Shown here one piece after another: positions 21,987 to 27,722 of a DNA stretch of 30,833 nt. Each line of letters opens with the position of its first letter. Position 1 is the first letter of the stretch. The translations under genes and the position numbers were made by a program. The DNA comes from Candidatus Iainarchaeum sp. (lineage in GTDB: Archaea; Iainarchaeota; Iainarchaeia; Iainarchaeales; 0-14-0-20-30-16): positions 1 through 30,833 of the forward strand of contig JAQTTP010000008.1 in the NCBI GenBank assembly GCA_028710695.1, written 5' to 3'. Below the pieces are notes generated by a model. It searched no databases and had not been told where the DNA came from. It worked only from the letters and a program-made list of their open reading frames with translations.

Positions 21987-22463
21987 ATGCCATTTCCTGC
22001 ATTACATGTTTTATTTAATATTGGTGCTTTCTATCCTTTCAGAAAATATTTTGGAAAGTACTGGCTTGTATTTGCTGGACTTTCTGGATTAGTAATGGAT
22101 TTAGATTTTGCATTACAATTTATTCTTGGGCCGGATTCATTTTTTGCACATGGGTATTTCTTCCATACAATTGGGTTTGTGCTGTGTTTATTAGCAATTT
22201 CTTTGGTTGTGTTTTTGAAAAACAAAGAATATGGAAAATATGGACTTATTATTGCAGGCGGAGCATTGTTACACTTACTTTTAGATTATATCCTTGGGGG
22301 CGGAAAATATTATTTGGCATTATTCTACCCCTTCTATTCTGGCGGATTCCACTTACACCTTTTGATGTCTTTTAAAGAAAACGACATTTTTGGAATTCTG
22401 GATGCAATAGCAATATTTATTTCTTTGGGTGTTTATTTTATAATCTTAAAAACTAGGAAATAG
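21987..22463 (+). CDS. YdjM/DUF457-like membrane-bound metal-dependent hydrolase
   Basis: 158 aa with 4-5 TM segments. GLVMDLDFA....FFAHGYFFHTIG resembles the ..PD.D....HRG.THS signature. SD TGGGGT upstream. Ends 7 nt before the next gene. Confidence 0.5.
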   Translation: MPFPALHVLFNIGAFYPFRKYFGKYWLVFAGLSGLVMDLDFALQFILGPDSFFAHGYFFHTIGFVLCLLAISLVVFLKNKEYGKYGLIIAGGALLHLLLDYILGGGKYYLALFYPFYSGGFHLHLLMSFKENDIFGILDAIAIFISLGVYFIILKTRK

Positions 22464-22470
22464 GGGTTGC

Positions 22471-24669
22471 ATGAACAAATATTTTATTGTAATTATTTTT
22501 TGTGTTCTTTTTGCTGCTTGCTCATACTCTTATACCTGGTCATTAACCCAAGTTGAGGCAATTGGAACTGGGACTGCAGGGTATCCTTATCTATTAAAAA
22601 TGGATGTAACGTCTGATGGTATTCCAAATCTAATTTATAGAAATAATTCAGGTTCTAATTTAAGACACGCATACTATTCGAGTGGAAGTTGGACTATAGC
22701 GAATATTGGGGCTTATAACCCACAATATATTTGGGCCTGTATGGACCCAAGTGACAATTTGCATGTTTCTTATTATGACCTTACAAGTGCAAACAGGGAT
22801 ATGAGGTATCTAAAATGGACTGATGCAACATCTTCGTGGCAAGCAAGCCCAACCATTGTGGATCAAAGCCACACAGTTATTGGACAATACAGCTCAATAG
22901 CCTCAGATAGCAGTGGAAACTTAGGGCTGGCTTATTTGGATTATTACAGTACCTCCGCCGTAGATGACTTGTATTATGCTTACTATAATGGCTCTTGGGC
23001 CACAACTGGAATTGATGTAAATGCCTCTGAAAAGGATGGATATAACACGGCAATTGTTTTTGATAGCTCTGGGTTTGCCCATATAGTTTATTGTGATAAC
23101 ACAAATTATGATTTGAAATATGCAACAAATAGTTCTGGATCTTGGGTGATATCAAGGGTTGACACAAGCGATGTTTGTTGGGGTAATGGTGTGGGTTTAG
23201 CAATAGATACTTCCGATAATCTTTATGCTTGTTATTGGGATAGGGGGGGCAATTTTACTCAAGACCTGAAGTTTGCATATTATAATGGAAGTTGGAGTAC
23301 CGAGACTGCAGCATCTACTGACGTTGTTGGAAAATACTGTTCAATAGACGTAAACTCAAGTGGCGTACCGCACATATCACATTTTAACGACACTGATAAC
23401 ACTTTAGAAATGGCATACAAAGTTGAATCTACTTGGTATACAGAGGTAGTAGACACTAATTCAAATTCTGGAATATATGGTACTAGTCTTAAAATAGATG
23501 CAGATAATAATGTGCACATTGGATATTTAATAAACCCTGGAACAAGTGGATTTGTGGGGTATGCTTTTGCTGCGGGACCTGTAGTGCCTGTAGCAAGCTA
23601 TTTTGATGTAAATTATACCACTCCTACTTCTGGCAACTATAATACTGAGGTCCAAGATGTTGAATTTTATAGCACTACTTCCGATCCGTCTACTGGCCTA
23701 AATCTAAAAATTTATGTTTCTAGCAGCCAAGGCGGATTTGAAACAGAATTAGTGGATTTAAATGTATTAGATTATGCGAATATATCTGGAATGTCTTGTG
23801 TAGATTCGAACTTCCAAGATTCAACAAGATGTGTTTATGATTTGAATGTGGTGGGCGTAACTGATGGAAATTATTATATTGACTTAAACTTGTATAATAC
23901 AACAACATCTAGTACTGATTCAAGTACGGGGACTTTAAGAATTGATCATACCGCACCAACTATTTCATCCGTAAGTATGAATTCTGAGAGTCAACTAACC
24001 GGAAGTAATTATGCTTTAACTGCAACAATATCTGACGCGGGATCTGGGCTTGACGGGAACGAAATTTATATTTGTTGGAGCCCAAGTTCAAGTGAAGTAG
24101 CATGTACTTCTGGAAGTTGGGATTGTCATTTAGGAGATATGGTAAACACAGCGGGAAATAGTTATAGCGCGACTATTTCAGCAAGTGTAAAAGATACATC
24201 CGGAGTTTGGAATTGTAAAATTTATGCAACAGATGTTTTGGGATTATCAAATAGTGGAACAGATACTGAAACAATGCAAACTACTACTGGAATTACTGTG
24301 GACGCTGCGTCAGCAATCTATTCTGGAAATCCCAACACTACTGAGAATGATATTCTAACAGATCAGGCCCACAATTATTTAGTGGTTACACATAATGGAA
24401 ATTCATCAATAAATGTTGATGTTAACGGAAACCCGTTTACATCTGGGGGAAATATTATTACTCCAAATCTTCAAAAATTTAAAAATAGTGATGATTACGG
24501 CTCTGCAGTATCTATGACTGGTTCATCTCAAAGACTTATAACTACTTGGGGGTCAGGGAGCTACCCTACAAGTGATAATTTTAGTATGTGGTTTTGGCTA
24601 GATATTCCTGTTGGGGCATATCACGGAGATTATAGTAGTTCTATAGTTTTTACAAGTGAGGGGTCTTAG
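22471..24669 (+). CDS. large surface protein A: lipobox-like signal, 7-repeat beta-propeller, Ig-like modules, C-terminal domain shared with protein B
   Basis: MNKYFIVIIFCVLFAAC. Seven ~45-aa repeats (D.SG..H+.Y.D....L.YA...GSW). IDHTAPTISSV and SDAGSGLDG are Ig-like module starts. The last 126 aa are paralogous to the end of B. Confidence 0.75.
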   Translation: MNKYFIVIIFCVLFAACSYSYTWSLTQVEAIGTGTAGYPYLLKMDVTSDGIPNLIYRNNSGSNLRHAYYSSGSWTIANIGAYNPQYIWACMDPSDNLHVSYYDLTSANRDMRYLKWTDATSSWQASPTIVDQSHTVIGQYSSIASDSSGNLGLAYLDYYSTSAVDDLYYAYYNGSWATTGIDVNASEKDGYNTAIVFDSSGFAHIVYCDNTNYDLKYATNSSGSWVISRVDTSDVCWGNGVGLAIDTSDNLYACYWDRGGNFTQDLKFAYYNGSWSTETAASTDVVGKYCSIDVNSSGVPHISHFNDTDNTLEMAYKVESTWYTEVVDTNSNSGIYGTSLKIDADNNVHIGYLINPGTSGFVGYAFAAGPVVPVASYFDVNYTTPTSGNYNTEVQDVEFYSTTSDPSTGLNLKIYVSSSQGGFETELVDLNVLDYANISGMSCVDSNFQDSTRCVYDLNVVGVTDGNYYIDLNLYNTTTSSTDSSTGTLRIDHTAPTISSVSMNSESQLTGSNYALTATISDAGSGLDGNEIYICWSPSSSEVACTSGSWDCHLGDMVNTAGNSYSATISASVKDTSGVWNCKIYATDVLGLSNSGTDTETMQTTTGITVDAASAIYSGNPNTTENDILTDQAHNYLVVTHNGNSSINVDVNGNPFTSGGNIITPNLQKFKNSDDYGSAVSMTGSSQRLITTWGSGSYPTSDNFSMWFWLDIPVGAYHGDYSSSIVFTSEGS

Positions 24670-24762: not shown

Positions 24763-25728
24763 TTGTTTATGATTTCAAATAAAGGCTTTTTGAGAATAGG
24801 AAAATTCTTTTTAATATTTATTTTCGCGGGGCTGTTTATTTTTTTGTTAAATTTTTCTAGTTCTGCTGATGTATCTGTAACTGCAACAGTTGGTAATGCA
24901 AGCCCAATATTGCAAGATGTGAATATTTGTTCAACTAGTTGTGAAAAATATAAAGCACTTGCCCCTGGGACAGCATTCACAGTTCAAGTTATAGCAGGGG
25001 ACCCAAATGGATTAAGTGATATAAATTGGGGTGCAACAGAAATAGAAATCTATACTGTGGCAGATACAAACGCAAGTTCAGCAAGTTGGGATCATGTGAT
25101 TTTGTCAATGGCAGATGGAACCTTGACTCAAACAGATTCTGCAGATGGTTGTACTGCGGAAATAGCTATTACGGATACAAACTGTTTTACTATAGAAGCA
25201 GGGGATTGGACAGTAAAATTTTTAGAGGCTGGGGCAGAAATTTATGTTAAAATTTATGATAAATATGCAGTTCCGGCATCAAGTGATTTAGAAATTGCTT
25301 ATGTTGCGGATACTCTTGGAATCTTAGTTTCTGGAACAACAGGTATGTCATTAGATACGACTGCCGGGACTTTTTCAGGGAGCGCAAATACAACAAATAA
25401 TGCCTTTGACTCTGGACAAACAGTTAATGCTTATATAATTGCTACACATAGCGGAAACCAGAATTTAGAATTAAAAATGGATGCAAGTAGTTTAACTAGT
25501 GGTGGTAACACAATTGCTGATGGCAATATAAGTTGGTATTTAAGTAATGATGCAGTAAGTTCAACACCATTTACTGGTGCAGCAGATACTATCCATACTG
25601 CTTGGGGACGAGGAACAAGTCCAACATCAAGTACAGATAATGTTTATACTTGGTTAGATATTCCTATAAGCACACCTACCGGGGATTATACGGGAACTTT
25701 CTCAGTAACTACTGAAGCATCATCATAA
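24763..25728 (+). CDS. secreted protein B: paralog of the C-terminal half of A (Ig-like module + shared C-terminal domain)
   Basis: The likely start is ATG 24769, with GGGAGA ~10 nt upstream. Sec-type signal ending ..FSSSA|DVSVTATV. The C-terminus ..HTAWGRGTSPTSSTDNVYTWLDIPISTPTGDYTGTFSVTTE aligns with ..TTWGSGSYPTSDNFSMWFWLDIPVGAYHGDYSSSIVFTSE in A. Confidence 0.75.
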   Translation: MFMISNKGFLRIGKFFLIFIFAGLFIFLLNFSSSADVSVTATVGNASPILQDVNICSTSCEKYKALAPGTAFTVQVIAGDPNGLSDINWGATEIEIYTVADTNASSASWDHVILSMADGTLTQTDSADGCTAEIAITDTNCFTIEAGDWTVKFLEAGAEIYVKIYDKYAVPASSDLEIAYVADTLGILVSGTTGMSLDTTAGTFSGSANTTNNAFDSGQTVNAYIIATHSGNQNLELKMDASSLTSGGNTIADGNISWYLSNDAVSSTPFTGAADTIHTAWGRGTSPTSSTDNVYTWLDIPISTPTGDYTGTFSVTTEASS

Positions 25729-25755
25729 AAACTTTATCTTCCTTTATTTATTTGA

Positions 25756-26412
25756 GTGAAAGGTATGAATTGTATGAAAGGAAGTATTTATTTTCTGATT
25801 AGTGTCTTTATCTTATCCTCTTTATCCCTTAGTATTTCCTGCCTTGCTCTTGCGGGCGGGTACGATTTAAATGCAATAAAAGGCCAAGAATATTACTTTG
25901 ATTTTACAGTATACAATAATGATGCGGATTCAGCAACTGTTTGTGATCCTGGAATGTATTCTATGTCTTTAAGTGTTGTGGATGGAGATATTGACGACTT
26001 ATTTGACTATAAAATTTCTGAAAATGATTTGGTTTTAAATGACACAGACACAAAAAAGGTAATGGTTTCTATTACCCCCCTTGTAGACTCCGGACAGTAT
26101 GAAATTTTAGTGACTGTTAAAAGGGCTGATGTTGGTTTGGGGCAGGGTGGAACAAAAATATTTAACTCTACTGTGGGCAAGATAAAGGTAAATTTAGGCG
26201 GAGAAACAAAGAAAACATCATATGATGAGGTTCCTGAATGGTATGCCTATGAACAACAGCAAGAAGATCTAAATGCGGATCAAAATGCCCCTTTAGCAAA
26301 TAATCCTGAAAACAATAGCTCAAGTGATGGTAATACTTTGTTATATGTATTAGTAATAATTATGGCGGCAGTAATACTGTTTATGGCATTTATTTTGTAC
26401 AAAAGACGGTAA
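25756..26412 (+). CDS. surface protein C: signal peptide, single beta-sandwich-like ectodomain, acidic/Gln linker, C-terminal TM anchor
   Basis: Candidate starts are GTG 25756, ATG 25765 and ATG 25774. Ectodomain YYFDFTVYNND...VMVSITPLVDSGQYEILVTVK (CARDB/NEW3-like pattern). C-terminus LLYVLVIIMAAVILFMAFILYKRR. Confidence 0.7.
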   Translation: MKGMNCMKGSIYFLISVFILSSLSLSISCLALAGGYDLNAIKGQEYYFDFTVYNNDADSATVCDPGMYSMSLSVVDGDIDDLFDYKISENDLVLNDTDTKKVMVSITPLVDSGQYEILVTVKRADVGLGQGGTKIFNSTVGKIKVNLGGETKKTSYDEVPEWYAYEQQQEDLNADQNAPLANNPENNSSSDGNTLLYVLVIIMAAVILFMAFILYKRR

Positions 26413-26444
26413 CCTTTATTAATCACAAAAAAACAATTGTATAA

Positions 26445-27722
26445 ATGTCTAGAAATTGTTTATTTTTTATAGTAGTTTTATTTTTAACATTAGTGATTTC
26501 TCCTTTTGTGTATTCAGAACTTGTAACAGTAACTGCACAAGTTGTAAGTTCAAACGCAGAACCATCAGTGCCTTTGCTTATTGATGAAGGAGATAAAACA
26601 AGCTATGGGACAGTTACATTAGATTGGCTGGAATCTACTGATGACGAGAATGACTCAATTTTATATTTCTTAAGGGCCGGAACTACTTCTGGAGGAAACA
26701 GTACTTTGGATGTAAATACTCCAGATATAAACTATTCCTTTTCCTTAGCCACGAATGGAACTTATTATTGGTCTGTGAAGGCCTGTGATAATAATGATTC
26801 TACTTGGGGACATTGTAGTGACTGGAGTATAGAAGACACGTTTGTTATGAATTATACTGCCCCTGTTGATGATGAAGATCTTGGCGGCGGAGGGGGCTCA
26901 ACAACAAAAACAGAGCCAATTGACACCAACGAGCTAGAAGTAAATAGCTGTGAGATTTGTAGCAAGGGACAAAAATGTGATGGAAAATATATTTATTCTG
27001 ATGGCTTAGTGTGCTGTTTTAATGGTTGTAGTGTGAGTTCCCAAATCACTAATGAACCAATAGGCGAAAACTATGATGAAGTTATAATTGATAACTTTGT
27101 CCTTGATATGAAACAGGTTTATAATAAAGAAGACATGACCTTTGAAGATAATGAGATTGGGCTGAGGGATTATGTTCTAGATACAAATAAAATAAAAATA
27201 ACTTTGAAGGTAAAAACAACAAAGCTTCTTTCAAACTTTAAATTTGAGGGATATAGAATCCATTTTGATTACTACCTTAGCTCGCCAGATGAAACTATAG
27301 AAAAACCATTTATTCTTTTAGAATATGATCCTGCACTTATTTCTAACGCAAAATTAATACAAAGCGAGCAGGATTTCTTTGTTGTAAATGATTCCACAGT
27401 AATTGGAATAATACCAGAAAAATTAACTAGTCAGGACTATTTATTTTCTTTTTATGTTGATTTGAAAGAAAAGCCAAATGATAATTTGTGGACAAATTTG
27501 AAGAAGCCACTAGTTTACATAAAGAACAAGGATCTTTGTGCAAGTGTAAAGTGTGATGATTTTGATGCCTGTACAAAAGATATTTGTGAAGAGGGGAAAT
27601 GTGTTCACATAAACACTTGTGAGCAAAAGAAACCATCTGCAAGCAGCTATGTTTTATATTATATAATTGGTGCTCTGCTTTTAATGATCTTGGTGGCAGT
27701 CTACCTATTGAAGAAACATTAA
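26445..27722 (+). CDS. surface protein D: signal peptide, FN3-like domain, Gly5 linker, Cys-rich modules, C-terminal TM anchor
   Basis: The signal ends ..FVYS|ELVTVTAQV. FN3-like TVTLDWLES..YYWSVKACDN..CSDWS. A GGGGGS linker. Cys-rich segments CEICSKGQKCDG..CCFNGC and CASVKCDDFDACTKDICEEGKCVHINTC. C-terminus YVLYYIIGALLLMILVAVYLLKKH. Confidence 0.7.
   Translation: MSRNCLFFIVVLFLTLVISPFVYSELVTVTAQVVSSNAEPSVPLLIDEGDKTSYGTVTLDWLESTDDENDSILYFLRAGTTSGGNSTLDVNTPDINYSFSLATNGTYYWSVKACDNNDSTWGHCSDWSIEDTFVMNYTAPVDDEDLGGGGGSTTKTEPIDTNELEVNSCEICSKGQKCDGKYIYSDGLVCCFNGCSVSSQITNEPIGENYDEVIIDNFVLDMKQVYNKEDMTFEDNEIGLRDYVLDTNKIKITLKVKTTKLLSNFKFEGYRIHFDYYLSSPDETIEKPFILLEYDPALISNAKLIQSEQDFFVVNDSTVIGIIPEKLTSQDYLFSFYVDLKEKPNDNLWTNLKKPLVYIKNKDLCASVKCDDFDACTKDICEEGKCVHINTCEQKKPSASSYVLYYIIGALLLMILVAVYLLKKH

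Follow-up and report, generated by a model that had tools for sequence, protein, structure and literature searches.

A conserved N-terminal strand in two exported proteins of a Candidatus Iainarchaeum operon is a candidate donor strand for a surface fibre

Here we describe an operon of four genes, A, B, C and D, in a 30,833-nucleotide stretch of DNA from the archaeon Candidatus Iainarchaeum sp. (hereafter the window; contig JAQTTP010000008.1 of assembly GCA_028710695.1, positions 1 to 30,833 of the forward strand). The mature forms of B and D open with the same kind of alternating-hydrophobic beta-strand, which in B precedes a body of two domains, D1 and D2, and in D precedes an FN3-like domain. 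We propose, in the knowledge that the case for and against is evenly balanced, that the operon encodes a surface fibre or chain-like complex whose subunits are joined by donated N-terminal beta-strands. The comparative evidence, together with a structure model of monomeric B, favours a donor strand acting in trans and a chain of the order D-B-A, a preference that we hold with middling confidence.

The strand shared by B and D and its conservation

The original prediction, made from the letters of this DNA, stated that mature B and mature D start with the same strand, V[ST]VTA[TQ]V..NA.P, and translation bears this out (DVSVTATVGNASP in B, ELVTVTAQVVSSNAEP in D); it located the strands at the right site, although its coordinates cover 13 and 16 codons and the peptides quoted with them had 15 and 20 residues. 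Both strands are preceded by hydrophobic signal peptides with small residues at positions -3 and -1, cleavage falling between SSA and D in B and between VYS and E in D, as assigned by rule and not by a predictor. BLASTP detects no significant overall similarity between B and D (E 0.04), and the likeness is therefore confined to the short motif. Across the 1080 open reading frames (ORFs) of at least 100 amino acids (aa) that the whole genome contains, a loose version of this motif, [VIL]x[VIL][TS][AG][TQSNK][VITA], occurs 26 times; its sole occurrences directly after a signal peptide are those in B and D, two genes from each other. The resemblance between the two strands exceeds chance.

The NA.P residues, initially counted as part of a special shared motif, are instead a generic domain-start linker, and what seems distinctive is an orphan strand, resembling the last strand of a domain, in front of that linker. 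The strand of D looks like the last strand of an FN3 domain that is absent, followed by the linker with which an FN3 domain starts, and it can be set against the FN3-FN3 junctions of a relative, the D-like protein of locus L010 (DVFTVSPIYVNQAPSTP against ELVTVTAQVVSSNAEPSVP). Judging from the sequence, D's own FN3 domain can draw its full set of seven strands from the residues that come after this segment.

An exhaustive search yielded 62 representative homologues of B, of which few are close (10 at 90% clustering), and these fall into two architectures. The short, B-like proteins (270-350 aa) consist of a signal peptide followed by V-x-[IV]-T-A-T-[VT]-x-N-x-x-P and the body; essentially every one of the 35 B-like proteins in the alignment has the strand after its signal peptide, and it begins 1-3 residues past the A-x-A cleavage site in essentially every B-like member, down to 25% identity. 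In the long, A-like proteins (700-1300 aa), varied heads are followed, at the extreme C-terminus, by the B-like body or just its last domain; these proteins have plain signal peptides, and none of them opens with the strand. The strand ranks among the 12-residue windows of lowest entropy in the 35-sequence alignment, with a mean column entropy of 1.74 compared with 2.24 for D1 and 2.11 for D2, which places it on a par with the core motifs of D2. The loss of the strand from homologues, named at the outset as grounds for abandoning the idea, is thus not seen for B. Among D homologues with an intact N-terminus, five of five keep [LV][VI]T[VI][TS]A[QH][VI] past the cleavage site, and the D-type strand is kept in P0011, P0012, L001 and L007. 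In three B-like proteins (P0021, P0040 and P0048) the strand is tandemly duplicated before D1, e.g. DVPVDA...IPVDANV; it therefore acts as a separate module.

The gene set travels together. Ten further distinct loci, from at least five clades and with identities from 77% down to about 27%, combine an A-like gene ending in D2 with a B-like gene and a gene for a membrane-anchored C-like protein, and most of them add a membrane-anchored D-like protein; the genes run A-B-C-D or B-C-D-A. In each of the 12 loci with sequence downstream of B, B is followed by a C-like gene, and none accompanies the solitary B-like gene of locus L030. The family is patchy: of 201 genomes sampled from the phylum, 14 have it. 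Among A-like proteins the heads vary, from repeat heads to LamG-like and Cys-rich ones.

In four clades the D-like protein opens with a strand of the same type, irrespective of whether an FN3 or a D1-like domain comes next. Moreover, the seven-residue cores of B and D share lineage-specific residues: TA in the window clade (VSVTATV in B, VTVTAQV in D), G in genus g2 (FDVGVSV, FSVGAII), SG in G002 (VNVSGTI, ITVSGVV) and NI in L029 (INITANI, IIINGNI). Scored by identity and by BLOSUM62, the cognate pairing of B with D ranks first or second among 120 permutations of five clades, this being a small number of clades with registers set by eye. Gene conversion is an unlikely source of the co-variation, because the domains beside the strands either differ or are only about 27% identical.

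Position of the strand and the candidate acceptor domain

Monomeric B was modelled with AlphaFold2 (AF2; model mf6f31b7ef323) from the 35-sequence alignment, with a predicted local distance difference test score (pLDDT) of 91 and a predicted template modelling score (pTM) of 0.79. DSSP assigns no secondary structure to residues 29-48 of this model, which are unpaired, and places the first strand at 49-56; over the strand region the model has a moderate to high pLDDT (75-89). In good agreement, when the model is aligned structurally with solved Ig-like domains, the aligned part starts at residue 43-50, mostly at 44-49. The monomer thus does not place the strand intramolecularly, an outcome that had been singled out in advance as damaging to the donor-strand idea. 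The alternative offered in the original prediction, in which the strand is simply the first strand of the Ig-like module that follows, is contradicted both by the unpaired strand of this model and by relatives in which the body is fused to other domains.

In alignments the penultimate Ig domain of A is homologous to D1 of B, and the segment GTLRIDHTAP of A therefore occupies the place of VSVTATVGNASP in B. This segment is the end of the preceding domain of A, and the D1-like plus D2 part of A folds at a pLDDT of ~95 without it. The equivalent position is taken by the G strand of an FN3 domain in the fused A-like proteins P0022 and P0028, and in P0030 and L002 by the last strand of a small beta-meander (IGCIYGFE, followed by NNPP). 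Models and alignments together make the strand a conserved N-terminal extension that lies outside the next domain. Near the N..P linker, D1 of B (window:24907-25317) and its ten closest homologues share the invariant motifs DPNG..D, D.N and WD, as well as two conserved Cys pairs, which from their residues could be a calcium site and disulfides at the strand junction; the Cys pairs are absent from more distant B homologues.

Within this genome D2 is present only in A and B, and it sits at the extreme C-terminus in nearly all 62 homologues (P0062 is an exception). The C-terminal 148 aa of A align with residues 180-320 of B at 35% identity (E 4e-22). The original prediction of a C-terminal domain common to A and B therefore stands as far as D2 is concerned and falls short in that D1 is shared as well, so that A carries the whole body of B. 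No similarity was found between D and D2. The family alignment of D2 shows the conserved motifs TH.GN, RG..P.S and W[LI]D.P....G.Y.G, and D1 has an Ig/PKD/CBM-like fold (Z ~8.8).

In a combined language-model and structure look-up, the named predicted-structure clusters nearest to D2 were those carrying WxL, at a template modelling (TM) score of 0.70-0.71 over ~120 residues and with WxL in 22-33% of the cluster members, DUF4402 (TM 0.63) or SCPU. Weak matches to DUF4402 were obtained for six family members and separately for P0064 (E 0.039), and weak GH123_N matches occur among the D2 proteins. We treat the WxL, DUF4402 and SCPU similarities as leads, not as proof. A profile search confined to D2 found no bridge to WxL, DUF4402 or any pilin, and fold searches of the B model against the Protein Data Bank (PDB) and viral models retrieved only generic Ig-like or CBM-like sandwiches. 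Couplings of the strand columns with other positions of B, computed as mutual information from 42 sequences, are dominated by one subfamily split and favour neither D1 nor D2.

P0064, a minimal relative of 172 aa, comprises a signal peptide rich in Ala, a short extension at the N-terminus (TTPVQVPAIVQV) and, as its only domain, D2; it resembles a pilin version of the family with a single domain. In some lineages the bodies of the A-like and B-like proteins of one genome are far more alike than in the window (35% over D2), reaching 74% in L002 (5489-8951), and L025:4009-11119 is a further case; from the sequences, this suggests recent duplication or concerted evolution of the putative acceptor.

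Proposed assembly, alternatives and operon setting

We propose that A, B, C and D would be exported by Sec, and that signal peptidase I would expose the strand at the new N-terminus of B and of D. The strand would then be given in trans to the two-domain body (D1 plus D2) of A and B, most likely to D2. This would build a polar chain in which D, a donor only, is anchored in the membrane, B, as donor and acceptor, is present in one or many copies, and A, an acceptor only, places its head at the far end. C, a single-pass anchored beta-sandwich protein kept at every multi-gene locus, would be a candidate membrane-tethered chaperone or assembly factor, a role suggested by analogy. We infer the trans insertion, the choice of D2 as acceptor and the polymerisation of B. 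The original prediction arranged A, B and D as tip, shaft and base. That arrangement gains from the lack of a strand in A, from the acceptor candidate shared by A and B and from the donor-only, anchored character of D; in the clade of L009, L010 and L012, the anchored D-like protein lacks the N-terminal strand. Lipid anchoring of A at its own N-terminus, raised as an argument against a tip role, was dropped: the lipobox-like Cys is not conserved in A-like proteins, and the objection is therefore weak.

Several results weigh against this assembly or lend it no support. D2 is modelled in the AF2 monomer as a compact sandwich at a pLDDT of 97-98, and it aligns through its last strand with complete sandwiches (the N-domain of GH123 with Z 9.0 over 113 residues at 2.4 A, and PapD/MSP-like domains with Z ~8); an open groove is therefore not demonstrated. 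Co-occurrence cannot separate D1 from D2 as the acceptor, and the co-variation test has the narrow base given above. In a read-through pseudo-dimer of the C-terminal part of A with B, modelled as one chain (window:23950-25317) with the three in-frame stops between A and B read as Gly, the strand is assigned as extended (E) at a pLDDT below 50. MAFFT placed homologues on only one of the two homologous halves of this chain; the A part is confident and the B part, at a pLDDT of 30-60, is poorly folded because its alignment depth is only 2, and the model is accordingly uninformative about the strand. The anchored D-like protein of the L009/L010/L012 clade starts with a head of its own and has no N-terminal strand, a strand-like segment lying internally, before a D1-like domain. 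Finally, the Pfam families that define the WxL pilus system discussed below were not recovered: PF13731 (WxL) matches neither A-D (hmmscan, E<=1) nor 50 family members, nor any of the six frames of the whole genome at E<=10, under which a Lactococcus control did match, and neither PF06030 (DUF916) nor PF11797 (DUF3324) matches C or eight C-like proteins (E<=5). The operon therefore works like a WxL system in our proposal and is not shown to be a member of it.

The pLDDT of 75-89 over the strand region and the complete appearance of D2 in the model would also suit a strand that remains on its own chain, either flexible or packed loosely against D1 or FN3, in which case A, B and D would be independent adhesins that share modules and the strand a spacer or stabiliser; the L010 D-like protein, in which a similar segment (MIIIEGQVGNVVP) is internal between an FN3 and a D1-like domain, points the same way. 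We consider this unlikely, since DSSP leaves residues 29-48 unpaired, the D1-like domain of A reaches a pLDDT of ~95 without the strand, and the strand co-varies between B and D although it precedes unrelated domains in the two (D1 in B, FN3 in D); nor would a passive spacer be expected among the most conserved segments. The strand might also pair in trans with some other partner or in another geometry, for example with C, with a component of the host or envelope, or in a strand-swapped dimer; the product would be a fixed complex and no donor-strand fibre. The acceptor is a candidate one, C is membrane-anchored and kept in 12 of the 12 loci with sequence downstream of B, and the solitary B-like gene of L030 lacks A, C and D, all of which would be compatible with such a complex. 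However, that solitary gene retains strand and body, a better fit to self-association than to binding of C; the division into acceptor-only, donor-plus-acceptor and donor-only proteins is what a chain predicts, and in the solved Elr analogue (see below) the small subunit's own domain is the acceptor. We therefore give this possibility a rather slim chance.

The constant placement of the strand within 1-3 residues of the predicted cleavage site, and the N-A-S sequon inside the strand of B, could instead reflect a role of the residues after cleavage in export or processing, be it signal-peptidase recognition, N-terminal modification or glycosylation. This is improbable: the sequon is not conserved (homologues read GNENP, NNEAP or GNQAP), the A-like and C-like proteins encoded in these operons are exported although they have no such segment, and neither the alternating beta pattern nor the co-variation of B with D is expected of a processing signal. 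That the strand aligns with the last strand of the preceding domains in fused relatives, and resembles FN3-FN3 junctions, would also be explained if it were a functionless relic, the last strand of a domain lost from a longer multi-domain ancestor. Relics decay, however, whereas this strand surpasses the folded domains in conservation among homologues of 25-60% identity and persists in two different proteins, and we regard a relic as very improbable indeed. A donor strand acting in trans thus remains the reading that we prefer.

The coordinates of the operon parts are collected in Table 1. The window, which has ~33% G+C and archaeal housekeeping genes, comes from a genome of 0.9 Mb that is 86% complete. 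None of the proteins A, B, C and D passes the threshold of a Pfam or NCBIfam family. A, B, C, D and a YdjM-like gene form one co-directional block, with an Asn/Asp-tRNA synthetase-like gene, named from its own sequence, upstream of the operon and the genes for fibrillarin and Nop5 directly downstream of D. The YdjM-like gene was considered as a part of the operon and dropped because it is absent beside the operon at other loci. A and B share one reading frame and lie 93 nt apart (window:24667-24765), separated by three in-frame stops (TAG, TGA, TGA); the same arrangement recurs in the related locus L001 and is probably a coincidence. The solitary B-like gene of L030 (4514-5482, minus strand), from another genus, lies ~2 kb from genes for fibrillarin and a short Nop5, the same pair that the operon abuts in the window (window:27792-29161), and the Nop5 proteins are unusually short at both places (243 and 218 aa). 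The D-like protein at L010:8759-12412 is membrane-anchored and 1218 aa long, and comprises its own head, five FN3 repeats like the single FN3 of D, the internal segment MIIIEGQVGNVVP and a D1-like domain. At L025:5681-7207 (minus strand; genome G002), a polytopic membrane protein of 508 aa without a Pfam match is encoded between the D-like and A-like genes and could be an assembly or glycosylation factor.

Table 1. Parts of the operon and its upstream neighbour in the window; roles are candidates
Feature	Position	Strand	Description
YdjM-like membrane protein	21987-22463	+	Upstream of A
Protein A	22471..24669	+	732 aa; signal peptide, repeat head (beta-propeller according to the original prediction), Ig-like, D1-like (aa ~493-597), D2 (aa ~598-732); candidate distal tip
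Protein B	24763..25728	+	321 aa from TTG, 319 aa from ATG at 24769; signal peptide, N-terminal strand, D1 (aa ~49-185), D2 (aa ~186-321); candidate shaft subunit
N-terminal strand of mature B	24868..24906	+	DVSVTATVGNASP; candidate donor strand
D1 of B	24907-25317	+	
D2 of B	25318..25725	+	Compact beta-sandwich; candidate acceptor domain
Protein C	25756..26412	+	218 aa; signal peptide, single beta-sandwich domain, polar linker, C-terminal transmembrane helix (about 26335-26400), end KRR; candidate membrane-tethered assembly factor or chaperone
Protein D	26445..27722	+	425 aa; signal peptide, N-terminal strand, FN3-like (aa ~37-137), Gly-rich linker, Cys-rich and middle domains, C-terminal transmembrane helix (about 27648-27707), end KKH; candidate donor-only membrane-anchored base
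N-terminal strand of mature D	26517..26564	+	ELVTVTAQVVSSNAEP

Comparison with known donor-strand systems

The operon shares traits with several filaments held together by donated strands. As with the threads of Sulfolobus acidocaldarius (Saci_0406, with the putative cap Saci_0405), the host is archaeal, no usher or ATPase gene is nearby, cleavage by signal peptidase I is followed by a conserved N-terminal donor strand, and the protein of a neighbouring gene has the strand and no acceptor site (PMC9715654). The thread differs in having a single head domain and an isopeptide bond, and neither a modular tip adhesin nor a membrane-anchored base has been described for it (PMC9715654). A profile of the 35 B-like proteins searched against all PDB sequences at E<=10 returned only GH123 and phage gp5 noise. 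For archaeal threads, AbpA/TasA-like bundling pili, cannulae and Tafi, the fold searches listed only generic beta-sandwiches, and absence from these lists does not exclude the fold.

The Pam pili of Candidate Phyla Radiation (CPR) bacteria (PamA/PamB) are likewise made by an ultrasmall episymbiont from two-domain Ig-like pilins that undergo donor-strand exchange, and conservation in those pilins is highest in the donated strand and in the site that binds it (PMC13278184). There, however, the donated element is an inter-domain linker strand, not the N-terminus, and the hosts are bacterial (PMC13278184); no homology of the operon proteins to Pam pilins was detected. Chaperone-usher pili (Fim, Pap, Csu, CFA/I) offer the same division into a donor-free tip adhesin, a shaft with an N-terminal extension and an incomplete Ig fold, and a terminator. 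The weak DUF4402 and SCPU leads for D2 point towards this group, and Foldseek gave a weak match to the CfaE-CfaB fusion 3f83 (E 3.4e-4, TMq 0.33). The present operon, by contrast, belongs to an archaeon without an outer membrane, its structural matches stay at the level of a generic beta-sandwich, and Pfam scans of the five operon genes and their flanking genes, to which this search was limited, revealed no usher or PapD-like chaperone.

The closest parallel in organisation is the WxL operon elrABCDE of Enterococcus faecalis, for which Sleutel, Remaut, Kline and co-workers reported in October 2026, from genetics, biochemistry and cryo-EM, a pilus assembled by donor-strand exchange (bioRxiv 10.64898/2026.10.17.759780). 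In that system ElrD combines a donor strand (mature residues 1-15) with an incomplete WxL sandwich, ElrA carries a payload and, at the C-terminus, a WxL domain without a donor, ElrB has a donor strand and a wall anchor without an acceptor, and ElrE is a chaperone tethered by a C-terminal transmembrane helix; the authors' screen found the system only in Bacillota (bioRxiv 10.64898/2026.10.17.759780). Both are Sec-exported operons with four kinds of part, and both have tipless and reduced loci. B resembles ElrD in bearing the strand at the N-terminus of a small mature subunit, in ElrD directly before the Ig-like acceptor, and B-like proteins have what the AF2 monomer depicts as an exposed, unpaired amphipathic strand directly after the signal peptide. 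A resembles ElrA, with a variable N-terminal payload, Ig-like spacers, the candidate acceptor most C-terminal and no donor, and A-like proteins at large have this donor-free layout, with D2 ending no more than a few residues short of the C-terminus in nearly all long homologues. D is anchored and has a donor strand without an acceptor, as ElrB does, and C, like ElrE, is a beta-sandwich protein tethered by a C-terminal transmembrane helix.

There are also differences. D2 has about 135 aa, compared with the 214 positions of the WxL model, and a further domain, D1, separates the strand of B from D2; C contains a single sandwich domain in place of two; the anchor of D is a transmembrane helix followed by KKH, with no LPxTG or sortase signal; and the archaeal host has no peptidoglycan. 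The strand of B (V-x-V-x-A-x-V-x-N) departs from the Elr donor consensus [S/T]8-x-[G/A]10-x-[V/I]12-x-F14 in having V/I at the first position and no Phe14, and agrees with it in a small residue followed two positions on by V/I.

The tip, shaft and base logic put forward in the original prediction therefore matches one that has been shown experimentally in Enterococcus (bioRxiv 10.64898/2026.10.17.759780). We tentatively extend it, as a possibility that we rate below an even chance, to a four-component donor-strand pilus of DPANN archaea (a modular tip adhesin, a two-domain shaft, a tethered chaperone-like protein and a membrane-anchored donor-only terminator), which would be the archaeal counterpart of the WxL pilus, whether through distant homology or convergence, and with which the episymbiont would attach to its host. 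DPANN archaea spend their lives fixed to a host cell, though the molecules of that contact are largely unknown, and the heads of the A-like proteins are freely swapped, as expected of host-specific adhesins. If the proposal is right, the operon would encode the first donor-strand fibre of an archaeon in which the tip adhesin is a separate protein and the terminator is anchored in the membrane, and studies of how uncultured ultrasmall archaea attach to hosts would gain a defined, testable set of proteins. The logic of tip, shaft, chaperone and anchor, familiar from chaperone-usher pili and, from October 2026 on, from Gram-positive WxL pili, would then reach beyond the bacteria.

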